Below, one piece after another: positions 11,637 to 46,242 of a stretch of DNA of 46,242 bases. Positions within the stretch are counted from its first letter, which is position 1, and each line of letters starts with the position of its first letter. A program made the position numbers and the translations under genes. A model generated the notes under the pieces. It did not search any database. It saw only the letters and a program-made list of their open reading frames with translations, and was not told the origin of the DNA. The stretch is from an uncultured archaeon (GTDB lineage Archaea; Thermoplasmatota; Penumbrarchaeia; CAZUZU01): positions 2,823 through 49,064 of the forward strand of contig CAZUZU010000001.1 in NCBI GenBank assembly GCA_964624865.1, read 5' to 3'.

Positions 11637-11720
11637 ATGAAAAGAATCGTAGTAGCAACAGTTGTTATGACTTTGGTAGTAGTGGGCCTGATGAACATGT
11701 TCTCCATGCACGCGGAGGCG
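11637..11720 (+). other. Signal peptide of the 2,410-aa protein
   Basis: MKRIVVATVVMTLVVVGLMNMFSMHAEA|VSF has a basic N-terminus, a hydrophobic core, and an AxA-like cleavage motif. Confidence 0.6.
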
Positions 11721-18995: not shown

Positions 18996-19038
18996 AAATC
19001 ATAGTGTCGTGTATTGATAAGTGATTGGGAGAAATTAC

Positions 19039-22342: not shown

Positions 22343-22449
22343 TAATCCGTATTTTTTATATTCGTTTTTCGTATCGATGCCTTTATATCCGTATGAGTGG
22401 GCCCGGGGGAAAGATTTATAGGTGATCGACCCGTAAGAAAGATGATACA

Positions 22450-23916
22450 ATGGAAAATGGATCGGGTAGACATTGGCCCAGCCGTACCGGTTTTCTTTTG
22501 GCGGCCATGGGCTCGGCCATGGGCCTGGGGAATGTGTGGCGGTTTCCTTACTTTGCATATAAATACGGCGGCGGAGCCTTTCTCGTTCCCTATCTAATAG
22601 CTCTTTTTACAACCGGGATACCTTTATTGATCCTGGAGATGGGAATCGGGAAGAACATGCAGGGATCCCCTCCCTTCTCATTCCATAAGATGGACCGGCG
22701 TTTTGCCTGGCTGGGATGGTTCATGCTTCTGGTAGGCTTTGTTATAATCATTTACTATACGGTGGTGATCGGTTGGTCCTTGGCCTATATGCTGAAATCA
22801 CTGACCCTTTCCTGGGGCACGCATCCCGAGCATCATTTCTATAACGATTTCATTGGTCGAACCTCCTCTCCCGCCCTCATGGGGGGTATCGATCCCACTT
22901 TGTTGATAGTAATTGTGACCACGTGGGCAATAATGTACTGGATCGTTTGGAAGGGTGTGAAACGGGTAAGCAAGGTGGTTAAGCTCACGGTTCCCCTGCC
23001 GGCATTGCTACTTGTGATATTAGCCATTAGGGGCCTTACCCTTCCCGGCGCGTCCATAGGTCTGAATTATTACCTTTCCCCAGATTTGGGGGCATTGCTT
23101 GATCCAGAGGTATGGCTTGCAGCCTACGCCCAGGTGTTCTTTACGCTCTCGCTTGCAGGCGGGGTTATGATAGCCTATTCTTCTCGTTTACCGGAAGACG
23201 CAGATGTTACCAACAATGCACATATCGTATCTTTTACCAACTGTGGTCTGGCCTTCTTCGCAGGTCTTGTGGTTTTTTCCACCTTGGGTTACCTGGCTTA
23301 TTCCACTGGGCAAGATATCGGTACAGTGGTGGAGAGCGGGCCCGCCCTGGCTTTTGTCATATATCCAACGGCCATCTCATTAATGCCCGCGGGAGCCGCT
23401 CTTTTTGGCTTCATTTTCTTCCTCACCCTATTTCTTTTGGGTATAGATTCGGGATTTGCCTTGATAGAGGCATTTGTCATGGGTTTCAGCGAGGCGGGAT
23501 TTGATGAGAGAAAGGTCCTGACCGCCGTTACCTGCGTCGGAACGATCATCGCACTTCTGTTCGCTACCGGCGGCGGCTACCATTGGCTTACCATCGCGGA
23601 CCAGTTCTTCAACGAAGTAGGGCTTCTCATTATCGGAGTTATCGAATGTTTGGTGGTAGCCTACTGCTACGGGCCAGATAGATTCCGCTCTCTCTGCGAC
23701 GAGACGTCCGAGATACCTATTGATAAGTGGTGGAAGAACAGTATAATGTATTTCACTCCGATCATACTTTCCATCATACTCATACTTAGAATTGCGGATA
23801 CGGTGGTCAACGGTTACAGCGGCTATCCAAACTGGGCCATAATTCTGGGGGGATGGTTGCCTCTACTGATACTCTGGCTGGGCGGGATATACCTGTGGAG
23901 GAGGTGGAATTATTGA
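22450..23916 (+). CDS. Sodium-dependent transporter, SNF/SLC6 (LeuT-like) family, second paralog
   Basis: WPSRTGFLLAAMGSAMGLGNVWRFPYFAYKYGGGAFLVPY is the hallmark motif, and the protein is polytopic. Confidence 0.9.
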   Translation: MENGSGRHWPSRTGFLLAAMGSAMGLGNVWRFPYFAYKYGGGAFLVPYLIALFTTGIPLLILEMGIGKNMQGSPPFSFHKMDRRFAWLGWFMLLVGFVIIIYYTVVIGWSLAYMLKSLTLSWGTHPEHHFYNDFIGRTSSPALMGGIDPTLLIVIVTTWAIMYWIVWKGVKRVSKVVKLTVPLPALLLVILAIRGLTLPGASIGLNYYLSPDLGALLDPEVWLAAYAQVFFTLSLAGGVMIAYSSRLPEDADVTNNAHIVSFTNCGLAFFAGLVVFSTLGYLAYSTGQDIGTVVESGPALAFVIYPTAISLMPAGAALFGFIFFLTLFLLGIDSGFALIEAFVMGFSEAGFDERKVLTAVTCVGTIIALLFATGGGYHWLTIADQFFNEVGLLIIGVIECLVVAYCYGPDRFRSLCDETSEIPIDKWWKNSIMYFTPIILSIILILRIADTVVNGYSGYPNWAIILGGWLPLLILWLGGIYLWRRWNY

Positions 23917-29841: not shown

Positions 29842-30085
29842 CGGTAAAGTCATGAAGTTTTATTTGTGGTTTGGTAAGTTCGAAGTCAAATGTATGTATG
29901 CTTGAATGCATGATGTTGGCCCTCTTCGGACGAACCTCTGCGCCGACAGTAAAGGGGACAGGGTAGCCCCGCGTGACGACAACCAACACCTGAGAAATTC
30001 CCGGGGCTTGTCCCTCTCCCTACTATAGCCAGGTAAGTTCCTTTGGCTGATGTTGGGAATAAATACGTATATTGGATGTGGTAGC

Positions 30086-30190
30086 ATGGAGAAAGATCGA
30101 AGCCAGAAGTTGAGAAACGTGAAACGAGCATTTTCAATAAGTGCGATATTTATATTGTTAATATCCGGGATACCCATGCTCGTGAGTGCG
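30086..30190 (+). other. Signal peptide or N-terminal anchor of the giant protein
   Basis: A basic N-region (KLRNVKR) is followed by a hydrophobic core (AFSISAIFILLISGIPMLV) and then VSA|LDG. Confidence 0.6.
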
Positions 30191-33100
30191 CTGGACGGCC
30201 CCGGGACGGACCCAGAGGCCAAGGAAAGATCGAATCCCAAACTCGTCTGGGATTTCGATGTTAAGGAAAATAACGGGAAATATATCGCAAAAACTCCTGT
30301 ACACGAGGTGGAGTTTCCGGAATATTTCAAAGACGGAATATCGTTGATGATCGGGGGAGAATCCATTGTCTACGGGATCGAGCGGCTGGATTACGAGACG
30401 GAAAGGAAACAGTGGTACACCCGCAATAATCTGACCGAAAAATATACCCTTTACACGGAGGGCGAGGAAAAACAAGTATATTGGGCGGACACGAAACCCT
30501 CCTGGATGAACGCCTCGTACGGGGAATGGACGCTGTACGACGAGGTCTCCCTTTTACCAGGAAGAAGTAAGGTTCTCATCCAGGGCACCAAAGTCGTTTA
30601 TAAGGATGCCTTCCAAGGCGTGGATATAATCTTCGAGGTCCAGTTCACCAAGGTCAAGGAGACTATAGTTTTGAACCGCGATTTCGATTTCTGTGTTTCC
30701 CCACTCCGGATAAAGTCGAGGGTATGTTCTATGGACGATATTGCCTTTACCGGCGGATTGAAGAATATTATCTCGACGGGTGCCAACGCCTTCGAGATCG
30801 AATCCCCGTATTATGTAAACGATAATAAAAAGGGAGATTATTGCACTTTTGAATACGATGCCGTGGACAAGAATACAATAGATATGATAACCGAGATATC
30901 AAATTCCAGGATCAGAAACCATAATGTCAACGGCGTCCCGATAATAATCGACCCGACCCTGGGTTCGTCCCTTAGCGGTTCAATATTGTACGAGGGGTTG
31001 TCAAACGGCACGGTCAAAGAGACCATAGACGGTACAGTTACATATTATGAAGACCAGAATAACAGGATATACGCGGAGAGCGATGTCGATATATCTGGTT
31101 CCCTCATTCTCGACAATATAACGTTGAAGGTAAATTCCAGCTCGGGTTCCATCTACACGATAAATGTCACGGACAGCGGGCGATTCGACATTCTCAATGC
31201 CTCCGCAGTTAAAAACAATAACACAGGCTATGGGTATAACCTACGTTACCTATCGGGAAGTCGGGGTACGATAAACAACTCACTGATAGAGAACGTCTCC
31301 GGCGAATACGAAGGTCTGAGAACGGAAACATCCGAGTTGAACATCACCAATTCCTTGATCCGCAACTCCGAGAGCCACGGCGTATACTGCAACGCCTCGT
31401 GGCCAGTAATCTACGGGAACAGCATCTACAACTGCAGCGGCGACGGCGTGTACTATCAGGGGCAGAGCGTGGAAATGGATTTGACGGACGAGGAGAACAC
31501 AACTACCAATTCGAACCTCAATTTCACTTCTGAGGGAATAAGAGTAAACGGGAGCGGTCCCGATACGGGTTATCTCATCACTGATGAGATTGAACTGCCC
31601 GATGATTGTTTATGGGAAGGAATAAAAATTACTGAAGAGAATAATATTACAGGTCTATCATATCTTGCAAGTATCACAGATCCGAACAATAACCCAATCG
31701 ACGGTTTTACCAACATATCGGGCCTACCGGAATATATTGATATATCATCGATTAACCCGGTAAAATTCGATACGATAGGTATTTTTGTAAATATCTCTCA
31801 TCCGGAGAGCAATAATGGTAATATCAGTATACTAACAATAAAGACGGGTTTTGAGCCTAAACGTAAGATTGTTGACGATCTATCAAATGATAGATATATA
31901 TCAGAATCCAGCGGAATATCCCAAAGCAATGGGATGATAGCACCAAAATATGGTTCAGGATATGCATTCGATATCGATACGACAGCCGATTTCGATGCAG
32001 GAGATAAAGGTAGCAATGAATCCGGGAACGTCAGCGTCGAGACCTCGACGGACAATTACAATATCGATGCCGGAGAGATCCAACTCTCCAATCGATACTG
32101 CGACAAGTTCGAATATGCCGACAGTGATGGAGAGACCTGGAAGTGGGACCAATGGACGCCCACAGGTTCCTGGTCTGTTCATGAAAATGACATAGATACA
32201 ACCGAAGACGGAGAATTCTATCAGTCAATATCAAGTACGGATTATCAACAAAACAGATTTTATTTAGGTGGTGAAAGTGAATATGTATTATCCGGTGATT
32301 TTGATATCCGGATGGCAATCGAACTCGGTTACTGGGTCTACGGCGGCAGTTATGGCACTCGCCAGAAATATGCTCATTTTTATTTACGTGATAGCGGGGG
32401 AACCTGGGCTTATATATCTAGAGAAGTTGATAATTACTGTACCGATATCTTCAGATGGAGAACTGCCAACACTCATCAATATATCTGGAATTATCACGAT
32501 AAGACATGTGCTATGAGATTCACCAGAACAGGGAGTACATTAAAGATGTATTATCGTAACGATATGAATGTCGAATCCGAAAGCTGGACACTCAAAGCAA
32601 CGGATAGTTCCTGGACATCAAATGATGTTTATGTCTTCCTCAGGTTCTATGATAATGCCATGAATAATTACAATGCGGATGTTCACTGGGACGATTTCTG
32701 GATAAAGGAAGGGGATCTCAAAGAATACGGATATTGCCAGTACGGCAACTACACAACAGAAAATCTAACCATTGAGTCCGGTCAAGTATTGGATTATGTA
32801 AGAGTCGATCATGAAAACCTGGATTCGGAGAACAAGATTAATTGGGTCGCCTTTTTAAACGACACTGGTTCAGTTGTGGCAAATTATACAAACAACGGAA
32901 GCGGAATAACGTCCGGGAATTATACAATCATTTCAGATAATAATCTGGATGAAGGTAATTTATCCGATATTAACGGCACGTATAGGATCAATGTCGGACT
33001 GAAAGGCAATAAGAGCTCGACCCCCGTGATAACCCGATTATCCGGGGAATTGGATACCGTTAACGAGTCATATTTCACAACCACCGAGATAGAATCAGAG

Positions 33101-36100
33101 ACCTATGAACAATGGGACGCCCTGTTGTTAAATAAGTCTACATCGGACGTGGATAATTTCATTACGGTTTCGGTACTTGATGGAGAAACGAACTCCACAA
33201 TCACGGGATATTCGGAATTGAGCGGTAGTTACATCCCGCTTTCGGGTATAGATACTTACCTGCATACCTCATTGAAGCTTAGATTCGATTTTATCACCGA
33301 CGGGTCCAATCCTCCTGAATTGTACGAGTGGCAGCTGCACAAAACCCCCAGATGGTCATACAATTACATATACGATTGTGAGAATGGCATCCGTCTCAAC
33401 GGCTCGAGCCCGTTGATATCCAACAACTACATATACAAGAACTCGGAATCGGGTATTTCAATCGATAACAGCTATTCCTCGACATTGGGCAGGAGAATGA
33501 CTTACGAGAACGTTCAATTGTTCGGAGCCAGCCCGGTGGAATACGATTTCGATACGAGCGAGGGTTTTGCTCATATGGACGACCAGACCAATTCGCAATC
33601 TTTCTGGAACTCCACCACGCAATCCATAGATTTTATCAGCAATACTAACGATCCCGCCGGTTCCTTCGAGAGGATGCAGATTAACCTATCCACCAAGTTA
33701 TCCCCCAATTCGTTCTGGTCTCTTGAATCAGAATTCCATCTGACCTTCCGTAACAATTCCGAGGGTGCATACGGTGACATGAGCGTAATTCCCGTCTTGT
33801 TGAATTCAACAGATGACGAATACGGTAGGATTTATGTTCACGCGTACGGAGGCAACGATACTATCAATAACAACTGCGATGTGATTAGCATCTATTATCA
33901 ATCTTCAATAGGGGCATCGAACACTACGATATGTCAATATTACTCAGACGATACAGGGAACGGGTCATACGACGGTGATTACTTTATTCGTATCTGGTAT
34001 CATCCGTGGGAATCCACCCTGTACGGTCAGATATGCAATGCAAGCAAGCAGTCCGATGTATTGGCGTCCGGCTCCTTGGTCAAACCAAATATATTGATCG
34101 AGAATATCTCGGCAGGAGTTTGCGCGGGTCAGGGATCTTCGAGTTCGAATTATTACGAAGGATACGTAAACGAAATAAAGTTATATCTAGGCCTCCCCGA
34201 GATTATCGAATCGGACGATCTTAACGTCACGCCTTACAACGCATCTTTGAACAAAGTGTCCGAAACGAGCGGCTATTTAGTGACGGCACCCTTGACAATC
34301 GACGACTACTACACGGGCGTCTCTCTCAACCTGACGACAACGGAACCAGCAAACACCTCGATATCCGTGTCGATCCTTGATGCTGTTACCGGTGATGCAA
34401 TAGAAGGATTCGAAAATTTGTATTCCAATGATATAGGCCTTGTCAATCTCACCGACGACAGTAATCACGGGTTCAAACTTCGTTTCGATTTTCAAGGTGC
34501 GAACAATTCCACTCCCGTGTTGAGCAAGGTGTTGTTCAGGTACTATCACTACGAGAAATCGGGCGGTGTTATAGACAACGTGGTATATCACAACCACGAC
34601 GGCATAATGGTTGGTAACAACTCCGATTTCGTTTCAATAGTTGGCAACACGATATTCGACAACACGAGGTACGGTATCCACATGGAAGGTGCGAACCGAT
34701 TGTTCGAATATCAGGGCTTAAACGGCTACGGGTTGTCAGACGGTATTAACTTCGATAGCTCGGGAAGCAAGGAGAGTATAATATCGCTGCCTCCGAGGAG
34801 CGGGATATACGACATGAACTTCACGGTCTCGGGCGAGAAATATATACCCTACGGACCATTGGGGAGTGATTACTATTTCCAAGGCACGAGAACGAACTCC
34901 ACCGTCAACATGACGTTGAACGGAACGATAAACGTCACCGTTCCTACGAATTGGACCGCAAGCTACGCGGTCGCTTCATACACGAACCTGACGGACAACG
35001 GTGTGGAGACGAACTCGTCAAACGTCAACCTGTCGTGCAACCACTCGGGAACCAACCTGCAATTCGATATCAATTCCTCGGTCTATTTCAATTCCTCGGT
35101 TCTGAACCAGACCACCGATATTCTTGCATTCAATTTTACCGTGAATCAAACCGACATAGAAGGAAATCTATCCGTGGTTTTGACCTTTACTCTCCAGAAA
35201 CAAACCCTATGGGAACAACAGGAAGACGGATATGACATCTCGGTTGATCTGGACCCTTCCAAAGTAAATCTCTCTGGTTTAAAACTTATCATTCCGATTC
35301 CCAACAATGGTTTCGTTTATGCCAACGCATCTGTTTATAATTCCACTTGCGAGGACCCCGTCGATTATTCTTCCAATCTCTCTACGGATAATAAGGACTC
35401 GGGATACGTTGTGTTCGACATAGGTGCCATTGATGAAGATGACTTCACCGAGAGTTGGGACTATCAACATGAGATGGACACATGGAGCGATTCCCATCAC
35501 CCCACCGGATGGTCCACTCTAACCTACACCAATGCGAATTACATCACCCACGACACAGAAGGCGATAATGATTATCTATACAGCAATGAACAAACGGATT
35601 GGGACGACTGCGGTCTCCAGAAGTGGAATATCGACCTGGGTGAGGACTATACTATCGAGACGAGGGTAAATATATCCAGTGGGGGTTTTTGCGCGTTTAA
35701 ATATTACGACGGCTCGTATAGTTGTGGATTATCAGTTTCCGAGGGGTCCTTTGGGATCGACACGTCTCAATGGCATACTTACAGAAAGGTCGCGAACGAC
35801 GGTGATTATAAGTTCTATATCGACGGAGAGCTCGATAGCAGTGGCAGTCTGTCCTCGGACACGAGCAACTCGCACGAGTTCTGGATGGCATATACGTCCC
35901 TCGCCGGTATGGTCACCGGATGGATTGACTACATCAAGTGGAGGTCTGATAATGAAGACGCCGAACTTACTTTTGATGCGAACCTCACCTATTACCTAAA
36001 TAACCCCTCCCTCTCTCTGGGGGACGTCACTCTCTGGTCCCACACCGGCGAGTTCAATACCACCGCCACACCGATGAACAACACCACCGCCAAGGAATCG

Positions 36101-39100
36101 TATATCAAATCGCTGAACCAGGCCCTGGAAAGCGACCTGACGTCAAACGATCTTACTTTATCCGTTTCAGCGGCGAGCGCGGGGTACATGAATATATCCA
36201 ATCTCGGGTTCCACCTGGTCAGGCGCTCGTATATCGGGAAGAACAGGATATGGGGCGGCGAATACGGCATATACGTCAATAATAGCACTTCCGTGCTGGT
36301 GGATGGGAACCACGTCCTGAATTCCGAGGTGTCAGGTATCGAACTGGCCAACTGCAGCGGCAGGCAAAGGTCGTTGAACAGCCTTAGAGGCGGTCTCTCC
36401 AACGGTACCTACTCTTTCGACGACGATTCGCTGACCACAGGCGAGAACTGGGAGATGACCGTACCGGACGGCTCCGTGATCACTAACATGTCCTTTGACC
36501 TGAGCGGGGAGAGCTACGTGCCTCTATACAACCTCAGCGAGAGCCACGAGTACACGGGCTCGATATCGTCCCAATACAGCGGAATGCTGCCCGCCAATCT
36601 CAGCGGATATAAACCGTCGAACTGGAACAATATCACGGAGATGACCCTGGACGCTTCCGTCGATTCCCTGGATTACGGTGATTGTCTCTCGCTGTTCGGG
36701 CTTGATGCCGTCTCCGATACCACCTATACTTACCTCTGGAACAGGAGCAAGGACGAAATGGAGTCCTCCACCGTCGATTATTACAGGCCCGCCGTAGCCG
36801 ACCTCGTCCCTACGAGAGGGTATAGGATAGGTTACATATACTCCTACAATTCGACCGAGTTGAACGCGTCCATATGGAACGGAAGCGCATGGATCGATCA
36901 CGTTAACCTGACGGCGAACCTTACGACCAATCAGAAACAATGTTTCGCACTCGACTTTGAATATGTCTCTCTGGACGGCGTTGCTTTGTGGGCGGAATAT
37001 AACGGTACCGCCGAATATCTGAGATGGGCCACATATAATTCGAGCGGTTGGGATATATCCAATCAAACGATAAACGTTTCAAACGTCAGGTGGATCACGA
37101 TGTCTGAGGTCGGCACCACCGGTACGTTCCTGGCCCTTCTCCAGCTGTCGAACGGCACAGTTTATTCTATGACCTGGAACGGGAGTGAATGGGACAACTC
37201 CAGCGTTACCGAGATATCGAATTCCTCCGTTTCCACGAGTTATTGCGGTATTGCGCTGACCGAATACAACGGTAATATAATTGCCCTTTATTCCGAAACG
37301 GGCGGACTCAGATATCGTATCTATTCTAACGGCTGGGGTTCCGAACAGACGGTTACCGGCATCAGTTCACCTTACTGGGTGGAACTTGTAACCAACAAGG
37401 ACGGCACGGTTTGCGGAGCTGCGTCCACCTCCTCGAAAGACCTCTACGGTCTCGCCTTCACGGGCGGGAGTCTAAAAGAATCGAGATTGTTATGCGAAGA
37501 CGGCCTTCACACCACCACATCTCCGTGTTTCGACGTCGTAGCCGACAGCGTGGGGGATTTCTACTTTATTTGGTCCAGAACCGATTACTTCAACTTCAAC
37601 ATTACATGGTACAACGGCGTTTACTGGATAAACCAGAGCTACTGGAACAACACCTATCCGGATCACGAGGACACGATAGGTCACTGGCATTTCGATACCG
37701 GATATGGCTCGACCGTTGTGGATTCGTCGGGCTATTATTACAACGGTACGATCCATAATGCCGAATGGGACTACTCAGGCAGGTTCCACAAAGGCGTGTT
37801 CTTCAATAGCACGGAAGGGAACAATTACGTTGAATTCGACGATCACGTCTCAACTTTTGACGATTATTCACAGGGAATATTGGAGCTGTGGTTCAAGTGG
37901 AACGGTACCGATACCGGGGGCACCCTGTTTTTCCTTGGCGACAAGGATACGACGAACGATTATGCGGCTCTCAGGGTGGGCAGCTCTACCTCCAATTTTA
38001 ACGATGAAAGCTTGGGGTTCGTGTTCTTTGAAGGCGGAACCTGCAAGCTAGGTGCATATGCAAGGAAAGGGGAAACTCATTACCGGGACGGTCAGTGGCA
38101 TCACGTGGCATGGGTGGTCGGGGAGGACTTCAATTATATGTTCATAGACGGTAAGAAGGAAACGCTGTCATATGATTACGGCAGCTCGTCCACGGGTAAT
38201 TATTTCCTGAACGTTAACAATGCGGATACAATGACCCTCGGATTGTCGAACAATTCCATCTCACATGATTTCTTCGGCAGCATAGACGAAATGCGTATAA
38301 TCGACGACGAGTTCGTGAAACCGCTTGACGCTCACTGGATCGAAGTGGTCGCGGATACCGAATCCGACAGGATGTTCCTGGTAGCGACGGGCGATTCGTA
38401 TCTCATACACTCTCAATACGAGGATTCCGAATGGACCGATACGGAGAAGAGCTCCTATTATCTATACAGCCCTTGCGACAGCTCCAGGTCGCTCGACGCT
38501 TCCTTCGAGAGGATAAACTTTCCGCCCACTCCCTTTTCCGCAGCGATGAACGTCACCCACAACAACAATACCAAGACGTATACAGAGTCTAGTGATACAA
38601 TTACGTATACCTATTCGGACAACCTGACCTGCGTGAACGTCAGCGGTGCGGACACCTATAACTTCACAGTCGATTCCGATCTGATTAACGTATCCTCGGA
38701 TATATTGCTCACCGTCGATGCAATTAATACGACCTCCGCGAACTGGACATATGTCTTCGACGCCTCGAGCTACAATGCGACCAACGTTACCGACGGGTAC
38801 AGCATCGAGATAACGCTTTGGGCGCCTGTCGGTGTAAACGTTACCAACCCGCAGTTGAAGGTCTACACCCCTTGTACCAGCTATATGGAGGCGAATGTAA
38901 CGGTTGTGGGTCAGAACGAGAACCTTACCTCCGACTACATCGATTACTCGTGCAAATCGGACGGGTATATACTACTCGACCTGTCCGGGTTGAGCGAAAT
39001 CGGCTGGGTGTGGAACTACTCGGCAAATAATATCACGATCAATGTCACGCTTAGGTTCTCGCCCGGAGAGTTGAAGCTTGATATTGGGGGCGACGGCGAC

Positions 39101-42100
39101 AACGAGTGGGAATACACCGGCAACGATACGTTCCTTGTGGACGCATCGGTGAACGGCTTTGAGCCCGCTCTGTTGTCGGAACAGAACGTGCACGTGAGCG
39201 ACGATTCAGTGGGATACAGCTACATCCCGCTTGAGATAACCTCGGATTATGCAGGGAATGTCACGATTTCCAATCTGACCGTTTATTATAATATCTCGGC
39301 TGTAGTTAGGAACAATAATGTTATTAATACCGGGAATACGATGATAAATGCTGCGGATTCCTGGAGCAGAATCGTGTCAAATATCGTGGCTTCGGACAAT
39401 TCGTCAAGCACGGGCATAAAGAACAGGGAATCCGGAACCAAAGGAGATTCGGGGTCTTTGATATTCGACAATATAATCACAAATTCTGGAGATTACGGAA
39501 TAAACATCAACGTGACAGGCACGGTTATGAACGGCAACACGATATCAAACCCGGATTACGGCATATATTTCGACGAGGCGTCATATAACGCCGTTGGTGA
39601 TAACATAATATCGAATTGTACCGATTACGGCATATATCACAGGGACGAAAATCGAAAGGAGTTCGGCCCTGAGATGTATACCGAAATTTTTTCAAATACC
39701 ATTTCAGGCTGCAACATGGGATTGTACATGGATTCGGTAAACGACACCGTTTATTCGAACACGTTTTCTGGTTGTGATTACGGGTTCTCCTGGTATAACT
39801 CGTATGTAGGTAATGTCACAGGCAACAACTTCGACAACTGCAGTTACGGCGCCTACGCCTATGTGGTGGAAGATGAAACGACGTTACTCGCCGGGAACGA
39901 TTTCTCAAACTGCGACGTTGGTCTGAGCATGTTCGGCACCGGCAACGCCACCATCAGGAGCAACAAGTTCACGTCCAACACATACGGGATAAGGCTGCGT
40001 AGGGAGTTCAATTCCACAAAGCCCTACAACGTCACTGTTGATTACTGCGACTTCGAGTACAACATGTATGGCGTGGCAGCGTCCAACGTAACGTTCGAGA
40101 TAAACAACTGCACGTTTACATCCAACACTTTCAAGGACGTGTCCCTGCAAAGTACCAAGTCAAGCAATATGACCGACATTGAAACGGACCTTGGGGACAA
40201 TGCCGGTATATTCATGGAGGTGTCGGCAAACCTCAGTATCCAGAACAATACCTTGGAGATAATCAGTGCGGTCGAGTCGGGAGACGTTGACGGGGACGAC
40301 GACGACGATCTCGTAGGATTGTATAGAAATACCACGAGAAACGACTATGGAATCGTGGTTTGGGAATGGGACAACGGCGATTGGGACGACCCGGTTTACA
40401 TAAATTATACGTTAGACGAAGGCGACGAGTTCTCATCAATAAATATAGCCGATTTTACTGAAGACGAAGGCGAGGAAATATTAGTGATATTGAACAAAGA
40501 TGCCGACAATTCAAAAGCCTATATTTATTCCTATGTGGACCGGGCAATCAAGTATGAATTCTCCGATATCGGACCGGACACCGAGGAGTGTATCGTCTAT
40601 GATTACGACCTCGACGGCGACAACGAGACCGCGTTCATCGTCGAGGATTCGGACCAGGTGTGGATATTCGAGGAAGGCGGGGGAAGCTGGAATAGAATCG
40701 GAACCGTTGATGTGATCTCGAACCCCATTTACGGCGATTACGGCAACATCAACTCGTCGATCCCCAACTATCAAGAACTGGTAATCGTGGGTGAATACGA
40801 CGATCCGATAGGGAAGCTCTCGGTCATAAAATACGACGGCGGTTTCGAATCGGAGGATTACACATTTTCCAAGAGGGTGACGGAGGGCGTATCGGTCCTG
40901 GACTGCGACGGCGACGGCACTAAGGAGGTGGTGGTGACCTTCGCAGGCGAGGCGAGGATCATGTCATATGATACAGGCGAGTGGACGGTGGAGAACTCGG
41001 TGGACCTGCCGTGGGACCATAAATCCCGGGTGGAGAGGGGAGATTTCAACAACGATTCAATCGAGGATTTCATGCTCGGCTGGCGGGAGATTGTCAACAA
41101 CGATATGTACATCTACACCGCCTACTGCTACTTCTGGAACGATAATGCCGACGACTACGCAATAGTCAACATGGAGTTCAACATGACCCACAGCGTGGCA
41201 TACGACACGGAGGGAGGGGTTTCCATAGGCGACCCGGACAACGACGACGTGCCAGAGGTGGTCATCGCCCTGGAGATCGAGGGTGACGGCGAGAACCAGG
41301 ATGTGCTGGTGTACGACCTCGATTACTCCCAGGGATTCGTGAATCGAACGGTACGGGTGCAGGTGTACAACGACACCAACGCCCCCCTGGAGGGCGTGAG
41401 CGTCGCGGTCAGGGATGCGGAGGGCGCCGTAAGGTTCAGCGACACCACGGGATCGGACGGGCTCACGGGCAACCATATCGTGCCGCTCAAGGAGTTCAGA
41501 GGGGACGTATCGGACTACAAGATCATATACTACTCGCCGTTCAACGTGTCGGTGAACGACACCACGGAGTATTCGCTGGTGCGCCACTGCACCGTGATAC
41601 CCGGCACCGGCATTGCGACCATCAAGATGTGGCTGGGCGAAGACACGGACCAGGACGGGCTTACTAATGGGGAGGAGAACAACAGCTACCTCAGCAACTG
41701 GAGCAGCGAAGACACGGACCAGGACGGACTTAGCGACGGATACGAGGCAGGGATCAACGCCAGCACTTGCCCGAGGTTCTACAATTCCAGCACGAGCAGG
41801 TGGGAGCCCACGATCATCGATACCGGCAGGTACGCGCCGAGCGGGAGGAACGCTACCAGTGTCACCAGCGTGGACACTGACGGTGACAAGCTGCTTGACG
41901 GGAACGATATCTGGCTTGCGAATATCACCACCTCGGTCTACGATGCCTGGATCGAGCGGCACTATGTCTTCGACAACGACATGTTCATCGGTGAGGAGGG
42001 CGAGGGCACGAACCCGATAGACAACGACACCGATCGGGGCGGGGTGGAAGACGGCATCGAGTACCGGAGCGGGCAGGACCCCACCACCGACACGGGTGAG

Positions 42101-45058
42101 CGTGCTAACGACGGTGACTTCGACGGGCTGACAAGGAACGACGAGGACGAGTACTACAGGGATCCGAATGATAACGACGAGGACTGTGATGGTGACGGAT
42201 TACTTGATAGCGAGGAAGAATACGGTTCAAGAAAGGGAGGGGAGCCCGGGAGTTATGTGACGAGGTCTAATGACTACGATGGTGATGGAATATCAGATGA
42301 TAAAGAGATGTGTTACGTTAATGGAGTGAGAGGTGCCTTTTTTTACGAGGCCGAAGCTTCTTATCAACGTACCTGTGGGATAAGTCATAGTAATAGTCCT
42401 ATGCCTAAGGCCATTCATATTGATCCCAACCCAGAAGCTAACGATGCGGTGATCGGAACTGCTACATCAAATCTTTTGTGTGCTTGGAATATTGAATATC
42501 CCGAGGATTGCACCGGAAGTGGCATCGATTTTAATAAAAATCATGACTCTTTGATATCCAGTCATAATTATCGATTTGTTTTAAGGATGAGAGAGAGTTA
42601 TGAACAAAAGGATTCAAAGATAAGAGTTGTAGTAAGAAATTTTAATGTGTTTGGAGAATCATTAGAAATATTTAATAATAGCATGACTGTAAATCCCAAT
42701 TCACGTGGTTATGAATGGATACCTTTTCCGCATACCTTAAATTATTATAAATCTCGGTCTCATGAATACACCCAAGTTGAATTCTATGATGTTTCTGAAA
42801 ATGATCCGGTTACAATTTGGGGGTCTTGTAATTTGGAATTGGATTCCATAATATTAATCGATGCGTCACTCCAGTATTGGCGGACACAAAGTACTCAGGT
42901 AACCTTACCATATTGTAAAGATAGTGACGGAGATCTTATATGGGACGATGACGAAGTAATAGAGGGTAATTATTGGCTTCCTGCAGAGTGGTATAAAACA
43001 AATTATGCGACAGACAGGATTGATGAACGTTCGGTAGGTTATTCCGTTAATAGAGCTACCAATGACAATGAAAACCCCGTATTAGATATTGATAATATCG
43101 ATTTTAATAATGCAATGTACTCCATATATTGCAGGGGTCTAAATGAGAAACGATGTAGTTATGAAGAGATGGATCCAAATGATTATAATTATTTTAAAAT
43201 AAAGATTCAAGGCGTAGATAAAAAATATTTTTACAATTATTACAGCGGCGGCTCATTAGGCCCCAAAGGTATCTATGATAGCTCAAATATTATTGAACGA
43301 AAAGTTTATGTCACTGATGACAAGGTATGGGGAAAAACATGGTACAATCCACCTGCCCGCGGCAAATATACCAATAATCTACACGTATATCATTGTCGCC
43401 AATTTAAACCCGATACCTCTACAAATCAAAGGATTATATTCTATGATTATAACGATTGCGGTATGAAATTTGATTGGATATCGGTAATAAAAAATGAAAA
43501 CGTAGACGATTATCTGCCTTCAAATCCTCTTTCTTTTGACACTGATGGCGATTATATTTGGGATAAGGTAGAAATTGCATATCAGGAGACAGATATGGAA
43601 ATTAATGGTGATGATTGGTACGATTGGTATGAAGGAAGAAATGAAGTAGAAGGTGTAGATTGGTATGATGATGCTCTTTGGATAGATCAATCCGAATCCG
43701 GTGTATTAAGAGCATATCATCCTTTAGGTGAGATAGATAATGATATTTATTACGATAGTGAATATAATATAGATAACAAGGACGTAATATATTTAAATGA
43801 GTATCAATATCTATCATTTGATATGTCTCTTGACAAAGAAAAAAAGGATGACGGGTCTGAACCTTTTTCTAAATTATTTTTAATTCTTGGGATCTTTTAT
43901 ACAAGTAAGAATTCTGTTGAGTATAAAATAATCAACATTGACACCGAATGTTGGCCGTCATCCCCACAAATAACATATAATTGGTATTATTACTCTGAAA
44001 AGAAAGTTAAAATCGATTTGAGAGACATAGGTTCTGTAATTTATCCAGAAGAGCAATGTAAACATAATTATTATTATCCTGTCCGATGGATAACACATAT
44101 GGCGTTTTACGCATATAGCAATGATAATTGTGAAAAAATATATAAGATATCATCAATTAGATTTGAGAAACAACTCAATCCTTTAAGTGATGATAGTGAT
44201 AACGATGGAATACAAGACGGTTATGAGATTGGCTGTTATGATTATTCTTATTCATACTTTAATTGGCACTATAAACCGAGTGGAACATCTTATAAACCGA
44301 AATATGATTATGAAAAATCTTCAGGATGTTTAGATCCCGATACCGATAATGATGCATTGCTTGATGGAATGGAGGCCCATAGACATTTATCATTAAAAGA
44401 TAAGGATACGGACAATGATGGTTTAAATGATTATTATGAATATGTTGCTTATGGACATTATGGTTTCAATGGTTACTATTCATACGGTCGTATCCCAAAG
44501 GGATATTCAGCGTCCTTGCCGTATCTTCAACATCATCCCCATACAAATATTCCGGACATTTATATCGAAATGGATTGGATGCGCAATTGTGAACCTGAAG
44601 ATAGTGATGGTAACGATGTTTGGGATTTTGTGGAGATAGCAATGGATATATTTTACAATCGAGGAATTCATCTACATGTAGATAATGGCTGTATGGGTAG
44701 TGGTTCGCAAACATCTAGAAAAGGTACGATTGAAGACGCATCTTGGGGTATAAAAAACGAGCATTTTTCAAGAGAAGGTATGGGTATATTTTATTATGGC
44801 TTAATTTGCATTGAATTATCAGGAGGATATGTGGGTAAAGGCGGTGGATATAAGATCGCAATTGCAAGTGCGAAAATGGATTCGACAAAGGAATGGGCGG
44901 GAGTGTTTTTACATGAATTGGGACATTGTGTCATCAGGGGTTGGGATGATCATTGTAATAATGATCCATGTGCAATGCAAGGAAGTTATTCTGGAGTTCC
45001 TGATCTAACTTATTGTAAGAAATGTACCGAATTAATCGATCCAGGGAAAGGGATATAA
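30086..45058 (+). CDS. Giant (4,990 aa from ATG 30086; 5,002 aa from ORF-track start 30050) mosaic secreted surface protein with a C-terminal metzincin-like domain
   Basis: About 15 kb is uninterrupted in one frame. The preferred start gives MEKDRSQKLRNVKRAFSISAIFILLISGIPMLVSA (signal/anchor). The domain calls are in the sub-features below. Confidence 0.9.
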   Translation: MEKDRSQKLRNVKRAFSISAIFILLISGIPMLVSALDGPGTDPEAKERSNPKLVWDFDVKENNGKYIAKTPVHEVEFPEYFKDGISLMIGGESIVYGIERLDYETERKQWYTRNNLTEKYTLYTEGEEKQVYWADTKPSWMNASYGEWTLYDEVSLLPGRSKVLIQGTKVVYKDAFQGVDIIFEVQFTKVKETIVLNRDFDFCVSPLRIKSRVCSMDDIAFTGGLKNIISTGANAFEIESPYYVNDNKKGDYCTFEYDAVDKNTIDMITEISNSRIRNHNVNGVPIIIDPTLGSSLSGSILYEGLSNGTVKETIDGTVTYYEDQNNRIYAESDVDISGSLILDNITLKVNSSSGSIYTINVTDSGRFDILNASAVKNNNTGYGYNLRYLSGSRGTINNSLIENVSGEYEGLRTETSELNITNSLIRNSESHGVYCNASWPVIYGNSIYNCSGDGVYYQGQSVEMDLTDEENTTTNSNLNFTSEGIRVNGSGPDTGYLITDEIELPDDCLWEGIKITEENNITGLSYLASITDPNNNPIDGFTNISGLPEYIDISSINPVKFDTIGIFVNISHPESNNGNISILTIKTGFEPKRKIVDDLSNDRYISESSGISQSNGMIAPKYGSGYAFDIDTTADFDAGDKGSNESGNVSVETSTDNYNIDAGEIQLSNRYCDKFEYADSDGETWKWDQWTPTGSWSVHENDIDTTEDGEFYQSISSTDYQQNRFYLGGESEYVLSGDFDIRMAIELGYWVYGGSYGTRQKYAHFYLRDSGGTWAYISREVDNYCTDIFRWRTANTHQYIWNYHDKTCAMRFTRTGSTLKMYYRNDMNVESESWTLKATDSSWTSNDVYVFLRFYDNAMNNYNADVHWDDFWIKEGDLKEYGYCQYGNYTTENLTIESGQVLDYVRVDHENLDSENKINWVAFLNDTGSVVANYTNNGSGITSGNYTIISDNNLDEGNLSDINGTYRINVGLKGNKSSTPVITRLSGELDTVNESYFTTTEIESETYEQWDALLLNKSTSDVDNFITVSVLDGETNSTITGYSELSGSYIPLSGIDTYLHTSLKLRFDFITDGSNPPELYEWQLHKTPRWSYNYIYDCENGIRLNGSSPLISNNYIYKNSESGISIDNSYSSTLGRRMTYENVQLFGASPVEYDFDTSEGFAHMDDQTNSQSFWNSTTQSIDFISNTNDPAGSFERMQINLSTKLSPNSFWSLESEFHLTFRNNSEGAYGDMSVIPVLLNSTDDEYGRIYVHAYGGNDTINNNCDVISIYYQSSIGASNTTICQYYSDDTGNGSYDGDYFIRIWYHPWESTLYGQICNASKQSDVLASGSLVKPNILIENISAGVCAGQGSSSSNYYEGYVNEIKLYLGLPEIIESDDLNVTPYNASLNKVSETSGYLVTAPLTIDDYYTGVSLNLTTTEPANTSISVSILDAVTGDAIEGFENLYSNDIGLVNLTDDSNHGFKLRFDFQGANNSTPVLSKVLFRYYHYEKSGGVIDNVVYHNHDGIMVGNNSDFVSIVGNTIFDNTRYGIHMEGANRLFEYQGLNGYGLSDGINFDSSGSKESIISLPPRSGIYDMNFTVSGEKYIPYGPLGSDYYFQGTRTNSTVNMTLNGTINVTVPTNWTASYAVASYTNLTDNGVETNSSNVNLSCNHSGTNLQFDINSSVYFNSSVLNQTTDILAFNFTVNQTDIEGNLSVVLTFTLQKQTLWEQQEDGYDISVDLDPSKVNLSGLKLIIPIPNNGFVYANASVYNSTCEDPVDYSSNLSTDNKDSGYVVFDIGAIDEDDFTESWDYQHEMDTWSDSHHPTGWSTLTYTNANYITHDTEGDNDYLYSNEQTDWDDCGLQKWNIDLGEDYTIETRVNISSGGFCAFKYYDGSYSCGLSVSEGSFGIDTSQWHTYRKVANDGDYKFYIDGELDSSGSLSSDTSNSHEFWMAYTSLAGMVTGWIDYIKWRSDNEDAELTFDANLTYYLNNPSLSLGDVTLWSHTGEFNTTATPMNNTTAKESYIKSLNQALESDLTSNDLTLSVSAASAGYMNISNLGFHLVRRSYIGKNRIWGGEYGIYVNNSTSVLVDGNHVLNSEVSGIELANCSGRQRSLNSLRGGLSNGTYSFDDDSLTTGENWEMTVPDGSVITNMSFDLSGESYVPLYNLSESHEYTGSISSQYSGMLPANLSGYKPSNWNNITEMTLDASVDSLDYGDCLSLFGLDAVSDTTYTYLWNRSKDEMESSTVDYYRPAVADLVPTRGYRIGYIYSYNSTELNASIWNGSAWIDHVNLTANLTTNQKQCFALDFEYVSLDGVALWAEYNGTAEYLRWATYNSSGWDISNQTINVSNVRWITMSEVGTTGTFLALLQLSNGTVYSMTWNGSEWDNSSVTEISNSSVSTSYCGIALTEYNGNIIALYSETGGLRYRIYSNGWGSEQTVTGISSPYWVELVTNKDGTVCGAASTSSKDLYGLAFTGGSLKESRLLCEDGLHTTTSPCFDVVADSVGDFYFIWSRTDYFNFNITWYNGVYWINQSYWNNTYPDHEDTIGHWHFDTGYGSTVVDSSGYYYNGTIHNAEWDYSGRFHKGVFFNSTEGNNYVEFDDHVSTFDDYSQGILELWFKWNGTDTGGTLFFLGDKDTTNDYAALRVGSSTSNFNDESLGFVFFEGGTCKLGAYARKGETHYRDGQWHHVAWVVGEDFNYMFIDGKKETLSYDYGSSSTGNYFLNVNNADTMTLGLSNNSISHDFFGSIDEMRIIDDEFVKPLDAHWIEVVADTESDRMFLVATGDSYLIHSQYEDSEWTDTEKSSYYLYSPCDSSRSLDASFERINFPPTPFSAAMNVTHNNNTKTYTESSDTITYTYSDNLTCVNVSGADTYNFTVDSDLINVSSDILLTVDAINTTSANWTYVFDASSYNATNVTDGYSIEITLWAPVGVNVTNPQLKVYTPCTSYMEANVTVVGQNENLTSDYIDYSCKSDGYILLDLSGLSEIGWVWNYSANNITINVTLRFSPGELKLDIGGDGDNEWEYTGNDTFLVDASVNGFEPALLSEQNVHVSDDSVGYSYIPLEITSDYAGNVTISNLTVYYNISAVVRNNNVINTGNTMINAADSWSRIVSNIVASDNSSSTGIKNRESGTKGDSGSLIFDNIITNSGDYGININVTGTVMNGNTISNPDYGIYFDEASYNAVGDNIISNCTDYGIYHRDENRKEFGPEMYTEIFSNTISGCNMGLYMDSVNDTVYSNTFSGCDYGFSWYNSYVGNVTGNNFDNCSYGAYAYVVEDETTLLAGNDFSNCDVGLSMFGTGNATIRSNKFTSNTYGIRLRREFNSTKPYNVTVDYCDFEYNMYGVAASNVTFEINNCTFTSNTFKDVSLQSTKSSNMTDIETDLGDNAGIFMEVSANLSIQNNTLEIISAVESGDVDGDDDDDLVGLYRNTTRNDYGIVVWEWDNGDWDDPVYINYTLDEGDEFSSINIADFTEDEGEEILVILNKDADNSKAYIYSYVDRAIKYEFSDIGPDTEECIVYDYDLDGDNETAFIVEDSDQVWIFEEGGGSWNRIGTVDVISNPIYGDYGNINSSIPNYQELVIVGEYDDPIGKLSVIKYDGGFESEDYTFSKRVTEGVSVLDCDGDGTKEVVVTFAGEARIMSYDTGEWTVENSVDLPWDHKSRVERGDFNNDSIEDFMLGWREIVNNDMYIYTAYCYFWNDNADDYAIVNMEFNMTHSVAYDTEGGVSIGDPDNDDVPEVVIALEIEGDGENQDVLVYDLDYSQGFVNRTVRVQVYNDTNAPLEGVSVAVRDAEGAVRFSDTTGSDGLTGNHIVPLKEFRGDVSDYKIIYYSPFNVSVNDTTEYSLVRHCTVIPGTGIATIKMWLGEDTDQDGLTNGEENNSYLSNWSSEDTDQDGLSDGYEAGINASTCPRFYNSSTSRWEPTIIDTGRYAPSGRNATSVTSVDTDGDKLLDGNDIWLANITTSVYDAWIERHYVFDNDMFIGEEGEGTNPIDNDTDRGGVEDGIEYRSGQDPTTDTGERANDGDFDGLTRNDEDEYYRDPNDNDEDCDGDGLLDSEEEYGSRKGGEPGSYVTRSNDYDGDGISDDKEMCYVNGVRGAFFYEAEASYQRTCGISHSNSPMPKAIHIDPNPEANDAVIGTATSNLLCAWNIEYPEDCTGSGIDFNKNHDSLISSHNYRFVLRMRESYEQKDSKIRVVVRNFNVFGESLEIFNNSMTVNPNSRGYEWIPFPHTLNYYKSRSHEYTQVEFYDVSENDPVTIWGSCNLELDSIILIDASLQYWRTQSTQVTLPYCKDSDGDLIWDDDEVIEGNYWLPAEWYKTNYATDRIDERSVGYSVNRATNDNENPVLDIDNIDFNNAMYSIYCRGLNEKRCSYEEMDPNDYNYFKIKIQGVDKKYFYNYYSGGSLGPKGIYDSSNIIERKVYVTDDKVWGKTWYNPPARGKYTNNLHVYHCRQFKPDTSTNQRIIFYDYNDCGMKFDWISVIKNENVDDYLPSNPLSFDTDGDYIWDKVEIAYQETDMEINGDDWYDWYEGRNEVEGVDWYDDALWIDQSESGVLRAYHPLGEIDNDIYYDSEYNIDNKDVIYLNEYQYLSFDMSLDKEKKDDGSEPFSKLFLILGIFYTSKNSVEYKIINIDTECWPSSPQITYNWYYYSEKKVKIDLRDIGSVIYPEEQCKHNYYYPVRWITHMAFYAYSNDNCEKIYKISSIRFEKQLNPLSDDSDNDGIQDGYEIGCYDYSYSYFNWHYKPSGTSYKPKYDYEKSSGCLDPDTDNDALLDGMEAHRHLSLKDKDTDNDGLNDYYEYVAYGHYGFNGYYSYGRIPKGYSASLPYLQHHPHTNIPDIYIEMDWMRNCEPEDSDGNDVWDFVEIAMDIFYNRGIHLHVDNGCMGSGSQTSRKGTIEDASWGIKNEHFSREGMGIFYYGLICIELSGGYVGKGGGYKIAIASAKMDSTKEWAGVFLHELGHCVIRGWDDHCNNDPCAMQGSYSGVPDLTYCKKCTELIDPGKGI
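31106..31470 (+). other. Right-handed parallel beta-helix (PbH1/NosD-like) repeat block
   Basis: INNSLIENVSGEYEGLRTETSELNITNSLIRNSESHGVYCNASWPVIYGNSIYNCSGDGVYY shows a 22-24-aa N-x-I-x-N periodicity. Shorter blocks of the same kind lie at about 33350-33480, 34565-34700 and 36230-36365. Confidence 0.7.
37681..38320 (+). other. LamG / concanavalin-A-like lectin domain (LamG_3-type)
   Basis: HWHFDTGYGSTVVDSSGYYYNGTIHNAEW...GILELWFKWNG...GQWHHVAWVVGEDFNYMFIDGKK...GSIDEMRIIDDEF. Two further jelly-roll-like segments lie at about 32105-32710 and 35448-35955. Confidence 0.7.
39302..40260 (+). other. Large parallel beta-helix (PbH1) repeat block
   Basis: There are more than 10 consecutive units. Examples: DNIITNSGDYGININVTGTVMNGNTISNPDYGIYFDEASYNAVGDNIISNCTDYGIYH, then NTISGCNMGLYMDS, NTFSGCDYGFSW, NNFDNCSYGAYA, NDFSNCDVGLSM, NKFTSNTYGIRL. 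Confidence 0.8.
40268..41330 (+). other. FG-GAP/VCBS-like repeats (integrin-alpha-type beta-propeller)
   Basis: Ca-loop motifs recur every 55-70 aa: GDVDGDDDDDLVG, ADFTEDEGEEILV, YDYDLDGDNETAFIV, LDCDGDGTKEVVV, GDFNNDSIEDFMLG, GDPDNDDVPEVVIA. Confidence 0.7.
41341..41636 (+). other. Carboxypeptidase-regulatory-like (transthyretin-like) beta-sandwich domain
   Basis: VRVQVYNDTNAPLEGVSVAVRDAEGAVRFSDTTGSDGLTG fits the typical V-x-V-x-D...PL-x-G-V-x-V...T-x-x-DG pattern. Confidence 0.55.
41637..42310 (+). repeat. TSP3-like calcium-binding repeats forming the linker before the low-GC tip
   Basis: EDTDQDGLTNGEE, EDTDQDGLSDGYE, VDTDGDKLLDGND, DNDTDRGGVEDGIE, DEDCDGDGLLDSEE, DYDGDGISDDKE. A 22-nt direct repeat gcgaagacacggaccaggacgg occurs at 41637 and 41706. 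Confidence 0.8.
41675..41712 (+). repeat. Internal copy of the 38-nt exact repeat (encodes ENNSYLSNWSSED)
   Basis: gagaacaacagctacctcagcaactggagcagcgaaga is identical to 46205-46242. It starts on a codon boundary of the giant ORF. Confidence 0.95.
44560..45055 (+). other. C-terminal zinc metalloprotease domain, archaemetzincin (M54)-like metzincin
   Basis: HELGH lies at 44912-44926, followed by CVIRGWDD-HC-NNDP-C-A-M-(12 aa)-C-KK-C (CxxC at 45014-45025). This compares with the published archaemetzincin signature HEXXHXXGX3CX4CXMX17CXXC, with altered spacings. Confidence 0.6.
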
Positions 45059-45628
45059 ATGGACAAGAAATACAGTCCGTTGATTACTATAGGTTTGGTA
45101 ATAATCCTATGTCTGGCTTTTTATTATGGTTATATTAATAATTATTTTTTAAAATATCCCTGTTATAGATATAAATATACGGTAGAAATTAATACTGATT
45201 CGCCGGAGAATTATACTATTTATGTACCAATACTGGTAAATGAAGATGATGGTGAAATATCGAAAGCGATGAATAATTTGGAGAAATCAGGTAAATGTTC
45301 ATATGAAATAACGAATTCGAGAAATGGATGGGCTATGATGATAGAGGGTATAGGAAATATTACTTTACTCTCTGAGGGTGAAAAAGAAATACAATATGCA
45401 TGGTTGAGCATGTATAATGCCTCTTATGGTGAAAATAAAAGTTTTGGTGAATATTGGATATATTCTGACCATAAAGGAAATAATTCAATAGATGTTTGGG
45501 TGTATGGTTATATAGACAAGGGACATAGTGAATTTGAAGGCAAGAGTTATGTAAGTTATGTTAGATGCCAGATTAAAGAATCGGGATGGCAGAGATATAG
45601 GGGAGATCATGGGGTATCTGTTGTTTAA
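45059..45628 (+). CDS. Hypothetical 189-aa single-pass membrane protein, translationally coupled to the giant ORF (candidate cognate partner, inhibitor or immunity protein)
   Basis: The ATG directly abuts the giant ORF stop (ataTAAATGgac). It has the same low-GC composition. An N-terminal TM helix (LITIGLVIILCLAFYYGYI) precedes a beta-rich domain of about 150 aa. No family was recognised. Confidence 0.7.
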   Translation: MDKKYSPLITIGLVIILCLAFYYGYINNYFLKYPCYRYKYTVEINTDSPENYTIYVPILVNEDDGEISKAMNNLEKSGKCSYEITNSRNGWAMMIEGIGNITLLSEGEKEIQYAWLSMYNASYGENKSFGEYWIYSDHKGNNSIDVWVYGYIDKGHSEFEGKSYVSYVRCQIKESGWQRYRGDHGVSVV

Positions 45629-46167
45629 ACACGAAAACGCCGTGAAATCTGAAGTAATACCTGGCATTTCGGGAGACCATAGCCCCCGCCCTTCTAACTA
45701 CGGAAATGCCGTATTACGGAGAGCTGGCCGGTTTTACGGTCGTTTTCCAGATAGCCGCTGAAATATTCGAAAAGAGAGATGCAAGCAAGATGGAAAGGAG
45801 AAAAAAGAAGGTAGTCAAAAATGGGAATCCTCCACCTCGGCAACGTGTGCTGGCGTAAGAAGTCCAAATCTCTTGGTATGAGCGCTTCGAGGACAACCCA
45901 TGGGGTTTTGGGCATGGGTCACCGCAGAAGCGATGAGGGAGGGCATAAAGGGCGCCGGTCCGAGCGAGTGCAGGGAGCGAGGATAGCGCTTGCGGGGTGG
46001 GAGGAAGAGTGCGAGCAGGCGTTACCGAGGTTTTTGGTACCTGTAGGTTTTTGGCGAGGTAATGCCAGCGGAGCACGAGGGGCAAAAAGACCAGGGTGCG
46101 AGCGCTACATCGAAGGCACTCGTCCGTTATCGTGTCCGTCCACAAGAGTGGAGTCGATGCCAGGCAA

Positions 46168-46204
46168 GAGAGCCGGGCACTGGCTCTCGGCCCTTTGTGT
46201 TTGT
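46168..46204 (+). terminator. Hairpin plus T-rich tract (terminator-like) immediately before the repeat junction
   Basis: A 7-bp stem pairs gagagcc (46168-46174) with ggctctc (46182-46188) around a 7-nt loop. ggccCTTTGTGTTTGT follows, ending at 46204. Confidence 0.35.
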
Positions 46205-46242
46205 GAGAACAACAGCTACCTCAGCAACTGGAGCAGCGAAGA
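46205..46242 (+). repeat. Terminal copy of the 38-nt exact repeat, running off the window end
   Basis: A character-by-character comparison with 41675-41712 gives 38/38 identity. Identity stops abruptly at 46204 (t) versus 41674 (g). The extent beyond 46242 is unknown. Confidence 0.95.

Follow-up and report, generated by a model that had tools for sequence, protein, structure and literature searches.

The window analysed here is a stretch of 46,242 nucleotides from an uncultured archaeon (GTDB lineage Thermoplasmatota; Penumbrarchaeia; CAZUZU01), covering positions 2,823 to 49,064 of contig CAZUZU010000001.1 (assembly GCA_964624865.1). At its 3′ end lies a gene for a giant surface protein, whose high-GC upstream part we call the body and whose low-GC last part we call the tip. 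The tip ends in a predicted zinc protease of the metzincin clan and is followed by a small gene, the partner, with which it makes up what we refer to as the cassette. Beyond a spacer, a short segment of the giant gene occurs a second time. An earlier note on this DNA, made from the sequence alone, had compared this order of features with the layout of bacterial polymorphic toxin systems (PTS), in which the C-terminal tips of long secreted proteins can be exchanged. The features of the locus, in window coordinates and with GC3 for the GC content at third codon positions, are the following:

30050-45058, plus strand: giant surface-protein gene (5002 aa), with an N-terminal signal/anchor helix and without a C-terminal anchor
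41642-42307, plus strand: linker of TSP3-type calcium-binding repeats with six DxDxDG motifs (aa 3865-4086)
41675-41712, plus strand: copy 1 of a direct repeat of 38 nt with identical copies (ENNSYLSNWSSE), located after TSP3 motif 1 and ahead of motif 2
42160-42190, plus strand: 5′ junction at which the composition changes (GC3 0.83 to 0.27), in frame within one TSP3 repeat
42190-44524, plus strand: low-GC part of the tip, without detectable homologues except for TSP3 motifs at 44192-44440
44525-45055, plus strand: predicted metzincin zinc-protease domain, the last 177 aa of the protein, with HELGH at 44912-44926, then H-C-x4-C-A-M ... C-K-K-C
45059-45628, plus strand: partner gene (189 aa, GC 0.32) with an N-terminal transmembrane (TM) helix
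45629-46204, no strand assigned: spacer (576 nt, GC 0.55), purine-rich on the plus strand and non-coding by codon usage
45821-46242, plus strand: open frame of an ATG and 140 codons that runs off the window end, in phase with the second repeat copy
46163-46204, plus strand: hairpin (9-bp core stem, -21 kcal/mol) and T-rich tract, abutting the second repeat copy
46205-46242, plus strand: copy 2 of the 38-nt repeat, cut by the window end

The giant protein has a single hydrophobic helix (aa 26-51) behind a basic N-terminus and none towards its C-terminus. An N-terminal secretion signal on a long multidomain protein is one of the traits of PTS, and the one found here is a generic Sec-type signal only. 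Pfam domains on the body are restricted to Beta_helix, NosD, FG-GAP_3 and CarboxypepD_reg. No homologues of the body were detected among 5.8 billion proteins or among the 82 hits of an exhaustive search, a word-indexed homology search with its last 743 aa gave no match, and an exact look-up did not find the giant protein on record. BLASTP revealed no internal repeats in tip or body. Within the giant protein, TSP3-type DxDxDG motifs are confined to the linker and to the stretch just ahead of the protease domain. TSP3 units 1 and 2 of the linker (41637-41663 and 41706-41732) form a 69-nt tandem duplication, in which 27 nt are 96% identical and 22 nt exact. The earlier note had described a high-GC conserved body that ends in a TSP3 linker; the linker and a GC3 of about 0.83 are borne out, whereas the word "conserved" finds no support for a body with no detectable homologues.

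The composition changes at both ends of the cassette. A likelihood change-point analysis places the drop in GC3 from about 0.83 to about 0.27 at 42160-42190, within the single repeat DPNDNDEDCDGDGLLDSEE, and a second change point at about 45660 (support interval 45577-45832), just past the partner stop at 45628, where host-level composition returns. The foreign block therefore consists of the tip together with the partner. By the host model its codon usage is foreign, and its tetranucleotide correlation with the host is 0.36, compared with 0.67 for the body. Transposon-like direct or inverted repeats of at least 8 nt were not found at the cassette edges, nor do the low-GC block and the rest of the window have k-mers of at least 18 nt in common. 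The block joins the host body within a TSP3 repeat and keeps the reading frame.

To characterise the tip, we combined homology searches with structure prediction. A word-indexed search with the tip gave no match, viral contigs contained no copy of it, and a single-sequence structure prediction of the tip end was uninformative, with a predicted local distance difference test score (pLDDT) of 32. An exhaustive phmmer search yielded 82 hits, of which the sole strong one (P0001) was discarded as the window's own protein from a later start and hence not independent. All other hits fall on the TSP3 repeats or on the last ~240 residues, which constitute an uncharacterised domain marked by the motifs DIYVEVDWM ... 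GIxLHID.G.GGG ... FMHELGH ... SVMNY or CAM...YCxxC; the ~630 residues that separate the junction from the protease domain have no homologues. No Pfam family covers the protease domain. Compared with the PDB, a profile of 18 members matched metzincins only, with snake-venom metalloproteinases first (1e-4), followed by myroilysin, serralysin and archaemetzincin. An AlphaFold (AF2) model of the protease built on the 18-member alignment reached a pLDDT of 76.5 and a predicted template-modelling score (pTM) of 0.79, and Foldseek placed adamalysins, ADAM-8 and fragilysin on top (E ~1e-5, template-modelling score ~0.64). HExxH is invariant across the family. In the window the motif reads HELGH-CVIRGWDD-H-C-NNDP-C-A-M-x12-C-KK-C, so that zinc motif, Met-turn and fold, which together define the metzincin clan, are all found (HELGH-x8-H...CAM), with an insertion of three residues ahead of the third His; the relative P0088 holds the canonical form HEVGHCLGLEHCDNSICAM, that is, HEVGHCLGLEH. 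Judged from motif, profile and model, the last 177 residues of the giant protein are a metzincin protease, and all its catalytic elements appear to be intact. The earlier note had called the tip compositionally foreign with a metzincin-like signature; the GC3 drop agrees with the first part, and profile, AF2 model and Foldseek matches strengthen the second.

The Cys4 pattern that follows the catalytic motif recalls the archaemetzincins (MEROPS family M54), whose fingerprint is HEXXHXXGXXHCX4CXMX17CXXC and whose four cysteines bind a second zinc (PMC3427221). Like archaemetzincins, the window protease has HExxH, a third His, a Cys-preceded Met-turn and the pattern HCx4CxM...CxxC. The spacing, however, is altered: the third His is displaced by the three-residue insertion, and 12 residues instead of 17 separate the Met from CxxC. 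Moreover, the domain sits at the extracellular C-terminus of a multidomain TSP3 protein and is not a small cytosolic enzyme. With the NCBIfam archaemetzincin model NF033823 it reaches 19.4 bits where the cut-off demands 145, with only the C-terminal 45 residues aligned, so the domain is a distant relative and not a member of that family. The adamalysin and fragilysin metzincins (M12B, M10C) have the closest overall fold to the window protease, in which no N-terminal prodomain is recognisable.

The partner open reading frame (ORF) begins directly past the TAA stop of the giant gene, with a gap of 0 nt, and its product has one TM helix (aa 8-26). The earlier note's small membrane protein of the same composition as the tip is confirmed by gap, GC content and helix, while the translational coupling it also asserted would follow from the gene arrangement. 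Neither the sequence (Pfam, NCBIfam, PADLOC and PDB) nor a profile compared with PDB and Pfam matched a described family, an exact look-up did not find the partner on record, and a pattern scan of metagenome and viral contigs detected no member of its family. Homologues were instead obtained by neighbourhood look-ups. Three were found, each directly downstream of a homologous Cys4 metzincin: a protein of 206 aa in the Methanomassiliicoccales metagenome-assembled genome bin396 (29% identity over the full length, E 4e-18), one of 205 aa at locus L012 (40% identity, E 2e-29; 5 nt behind the metzincin gene) and one of 183 aa at locus L013, detected with a hidden Markov model. The partner thus belongs to an undescribed family of four members, each directly behind a homologous metzincin. 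The nearest relative of the window partner is that of L012, whereas the window protease is about equally close to L012 and L013 (72.8 vs 75.1 bits), the L012 alignment covering a longer stretch. The L012 DNA is low in GC (0.25-0.34), similar to the window cassette.

The proteins to which the pair is attached differ between the loci. In bin396, a 3.2-Mb single contig, the overall architecture is the same as in the window (big body, TSP3, metzincin, partner), and the ORF for TSP3 and metzincin is in frame with a 1710-aa PKD giant protein, a single TAA lying between the two (DGLPDIW*ILYGIYPNDP). This TAA (L011 6452-6454; CP070739.1) could reflect read-through, an error of sequencing or a pseudogene. 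On either side of the bin396 unit lie paralogous NosD genes (300 nt at 71% identity). At L012 (1359-4280), a signal-less, 5′-truncated metzincin ORF starts 18 nt past the transposase genes of an IS3-family element (HTH_Tnp_1, rve), and at L013 the metzincin ORF is open to the contig start (1-1189), where it runs off the contig. Upstream of the L013 metzincin, a caspase-like motif, IIDSCYSGS, was noticed in the ORF by eye only. Some Cys4 members have unrelated membrane-anchored proteins 0-12 nt downstream; in L010, L014 and L017, the gene behind the metzincin has an N-terminally anchored product that shows no detectable relation to the partner. As the same pair recurs on different bodies in other archaea and in metagenomes, metzincin and partner make up a co-inherited two-gene module, which is probably attached through TSP3 repeats.

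Downstream of the partner, the 38-nt repeat links the end of the window back to the linker. The copies at 41675-41712 and 46205-46242 are exact (0 expected by chance), copy 2 beginning 4,530 nt downstream of copy 1, and they form the only exact repeat of at least 18 nt in the window outside local tandem repeats. The repeat spans the stretch between the two duplicated TSP3 units of the linker. The earlier note had placed the repeated segment in the body just upstream of the linker; the exact repeat is real, but copy 1 lies inside the linker because it is located between TSP3 motifs 1 and 2. Searches of metagenome, genome and viral collections with the 38-mer returned 0 hits and no continuation past 46242. 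Since the sequence ends inside copy 2, the repeat may be long enough to break assembly. The same end would fit an orphan with a different tip, a collapsed tandem duplication or a chimeric tail at the contig end.

The spacer between partner and copy 2 resembles neither of its surroundings closely. Its tetranucleotide profile correlates with that of the cassette at r = -0.14 and with that of the host at r = 0.33, where host pieces of the same length reach 0.54 ± 0.08. It has no match in Rfam and no similarity to the rest of the window, its ORFs found nothing in any of the loci, and its folding is not unusual (z -1.2). Codon-usage scores are in the non-coding range in all six frames. Towards its end, the hairpin stem (46163-46192), followed by CCUUUGUGUUUGU, does not stand out from sequence of like composition (z -0.77), and the T-run is a weak one. 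In phase with copy 2, a frame stays open for 130 codons from the ATG at 45821 (shuffle P ~0.002). We considered that the spacer might be coding and rejected this on account of its non-coding-like codon usage. On the minus strand, a frame of 143 aa is open at 45714-46145. Of the GC-rich spacer without a credible ORF that ends in hairpin and T-run, as the earlier note had it, the GC content, the non-coding scores and the hairpin hold, but the hairpin is unexceptional, the T-run is weak and a frame of 130 codons is open.

In several respects the locus is like the bacterial PTS, such as CdiA-CT/CdiI and Rhs with their orphan cassettes (PMC3482391): a long secreted protein has a foreign C-terminal enzymatic tip, a small cognate gene lies directly downstream and is transferred with the tip, and sequence matching the stretch that leads into the tip begins again downstream, here visible for 38 nt only. 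The likeness in the cognate gene is shown by the gap of 0 nt, the common foreign composition and the pair in four loci. The hallmarks of the CdiA/CdiI and Rhs systems, FHA or YD/RHS repeats together with a demarcation motif, are absent; the window locus has no FHA or YD repeats, no VENN or PxxxxDPxGL motif and no CdiB, type VI secretion system (T6SS) or Photorhabdus virulence cassette (PVC) partners. Its junction element is instead an array of TSP3 calcium-binding repeats, and its tip is a predicted extracellular metzincin, neither a nuclease nor a deaminase.

Few polymorphic toxin systems occur in archaea, and no archaeal one has been put to an experimental test (PMC3482391, PMC8416519). According to the summary in PMC8416519, archaea have already been predicted to have PTS-like layouts in which C-terminal cassettes lie downstream (Makarova, 2019), and the VARTIG proteins of Thermococcales have recombining C-termini with co-varying small membrane-protein genes downstream (PMC8416519). 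As in these cases, the window has a large archaeal secreted protein with a small membrane-protein gene behind it and a function that is predicted only. VARTIG tips, however, are Ig domains without an enzyme, and the toxins of archaeal PTS are, as that summary has it, mostly DNases and RNases, whereas the window tip is a putative Cys4 metzincin joined through a TSP3 linker. The C-terminal region that is exchanged by recombination in those systems has a possible counterpart in the window tip, which is known from one sequence and not from a population. In view of these predictions and of VARTIG, as far as they are summarised there, the layout itself is not new for archaea, which partly overtakes the suggestion in the earlier note that it had not been described for an archaeal giant adhesin with a metzincin tip; the novelty would lie in the Cys4-metzincin effector, in the partner family and in the TSP3 joint.

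The reading that we favour, tentatively and as just short of probable, is that the host acquired a protease and partner module laterally, with the TSP3 repeats as the joint, an immunity-like partner and a displaced former 3′ end. Tip and partner would have entered in one recombination event with the 5′ crossover in the TSP3 linker, as the logic of toxin and immunity cassettes predicts, in which one recombination event at the 3′ end transfers both members of a pair (PMC3482391). TSP3 linkers would thereby serve as a recombination joint at which one crossover brings a new tip with its partner, and the observations support tip and partner behaving as one transferable two-gene cassette. On the surface of the producer itself, the partner would most likely bind or inhibit the tethered protease and so act in the manner of an immunity protein or an inhibitor. 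On the simplest, though unproven, view, copy 2 of the linker start would be the beginning of the displaced former 3′ end, an orphan that could supply homology for further tip exchange. A speculative candidate for that former end is a native anchor of TSP3 repeats, TM helix and cytoplasmic tail, like the one in the gene at 11637-18869.

A number of observations weigh against this reading. No part of it foresees the 130-codon open frame in phase with copy 2. For an orphan cassette, exact homology is visible over 38 nt only, up to the window end. The body lacks detectable homologues, and a constant body with a variable tip is therefore not demonstrable. Toxin, pre-toxin, immunity, CdiA and Rhs domains (PT-, Tox- and Imm- families) are absent from the matches in Pfam, NCBIfam and PADLOC, and no recognised toxin or pre-toxin domain lies at or ahead of the tip. 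In the table of Zhang et al (2012), metallopeptidase toxins come without associated immunity proteins (PMC3482391). Finally, many homologues of the protease domain are stand-alone genes for TM helix, TSP3 repeats and protease that lie beside housekeeping genes without a partner, which suggests an ordinary secreted protease family. Consequently, of the polymorphic-effector layout in the earlier note, the two-gene module and its joint transfer find support, while the orphan and active switching remain unproven; switching of tips by the cell rests on a 38-nt repeat that is cut by the window end.

Some of these points are shared by the most serious competitor, a possible if somewhat unlikely explanation, in which one lateral transfer gave an ordinary giant surface protein a secreted protease at its C-terminus together with an accessory membrane protein, and the 38 nt are an assembly artefact, either a chimeric read or a graph tip at the contig end, with neither orphan nor switching. 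The plain stand-alone protease genes and the lack of detected toxin or immunity families fit it, as do a repeat of which only 38 nt are visible, right at the sequence end, the place where artefacts of assembly are most frequent, and a junction without an independent copy in any collection searched. However, chance would seldom produce a chimeric tail that derives from this very gene and strand and begins exactly at the linker start that the cassette model needs; the tail is also in phase with the 130-codon open frame (P ~0.002), and the junction lacks the microhomology expected from template switching. An assembly effect of another kind, which we consider improbable, would be that the 4,530-bp unit 41675-46204 is tandemly duplicated or a circular recombination product and was collapsed by the assembler, the second copy having the same tip. 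An end that repeats an internal segment in direct orientation is a classic signature of a cycle in the assembly graph, and the unit has a clean start and end. Against this, 38 nt is not known as a common final k-mer overlap of assemblers, and an identical second copy would still be an orphan without promoter and signal.

The foreign block could itself be the artefact, a chimeric mis-join from another low-GC organism in the sample that makes the fusion protein nonexistent. A GC3 jump of 0.56 inside one ORF is extreme, and the nearest relatives of both genes (L012) indeed lie in DNA of 25-34% GC. Nevertheless we regard this as highly improbable: two mis-joins 3.5 kb apart would have to fall, one in frame in a TSP3 repeat and the other no more than ~30 nt from a stop, between sequences that do not have a single k-mer of at least 18 nt in common; host-like sequence returns downstream and ends in host body sequence; and the big body, TSP3, metzincin and partner architecture is also present in the single-contig chromosome of bin396. 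We judge lateral acquisition to be much more likely than a chimera, because the latter needs two precise mis-joins and the bin396 contig has a like architecture. Lastly, the two 38-nt copies might be the variable and template repeats of a diversity-generating retroelement aimed at the linker, an idea prompted by a repeat rich in AAC and AGC codons and a second copy that is non-coding and downstream of its target gene. It is almost certainly wrong: all 14 of the 14 adenines are identical between the copies, the window ORFs include no reverse transcriptase, and the putative variable repeat lies 3.3 kb from the gene end in a calcium-binding linker and not in a ligand-binding fold. We accordingly rejected the retroelement.

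If the locus is as it appears, it supplies a concrete effector and partner pair, the effector from a metzincin family not yet characterised and the partner from a family of four that has not been described before. TSP3 repeats would then be a new kind of recombination joint, and giant archaeal surface proteins would gain new enzymatic ends via lateral transfer. Even a conservative reading retains a conserved pair of protease and membrane-partner genes that is absent from Pfam and NCBIfam. A more far-reaching proposal is that TSP3 arrays are the universal joint of an archaeal polymorphic surface-effector system with cassettes of an extracellular Cys4-metzincin and its membrane-anchored inhibitor or immunity protein. 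Such a system may act in contact- or proximity-dependent antagonism or kin discrimination on the cell surface, and not on nucleic acids. Taken jointly, with swaps onto unrelated giant surface proteins, promoter-less downstream orphans from displaced tips and surface-acting antagonism or kin discrimination all included, we hold this proposal to be doubtful.

Elsewhere in the window, the gene content is archaeal and includes Pus10 with an archaeal THUMP domain, a DUF835 response regulator, PurL and a PIN_9 protein. Within the giant gene, a second and milder low-GC patch at 31550-33050 (GC3 0.34-0.47, flanks 0.5-0.7) hints at further mosaicism. The gene at 11637-18869 is a second giant gene (2410 aa) with Big_7 and Big_13 domains and TSP3 repeats. 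These repeats form tandem arrays with a unit of 225 nt, among which exact matches reach 38 nt, and towards the 3′ end of the gene they are followed by a TM helix and a charged cytoplasmic tail with AKRHGPDSFE repeats. Between the two giant genes, at 19021-23916, lie a gene for an M14 carboxypeptidase and then two adjoining genes for SNF-family sodium symporters, a set that suggests a context of peptide or amino-acid scavenging.

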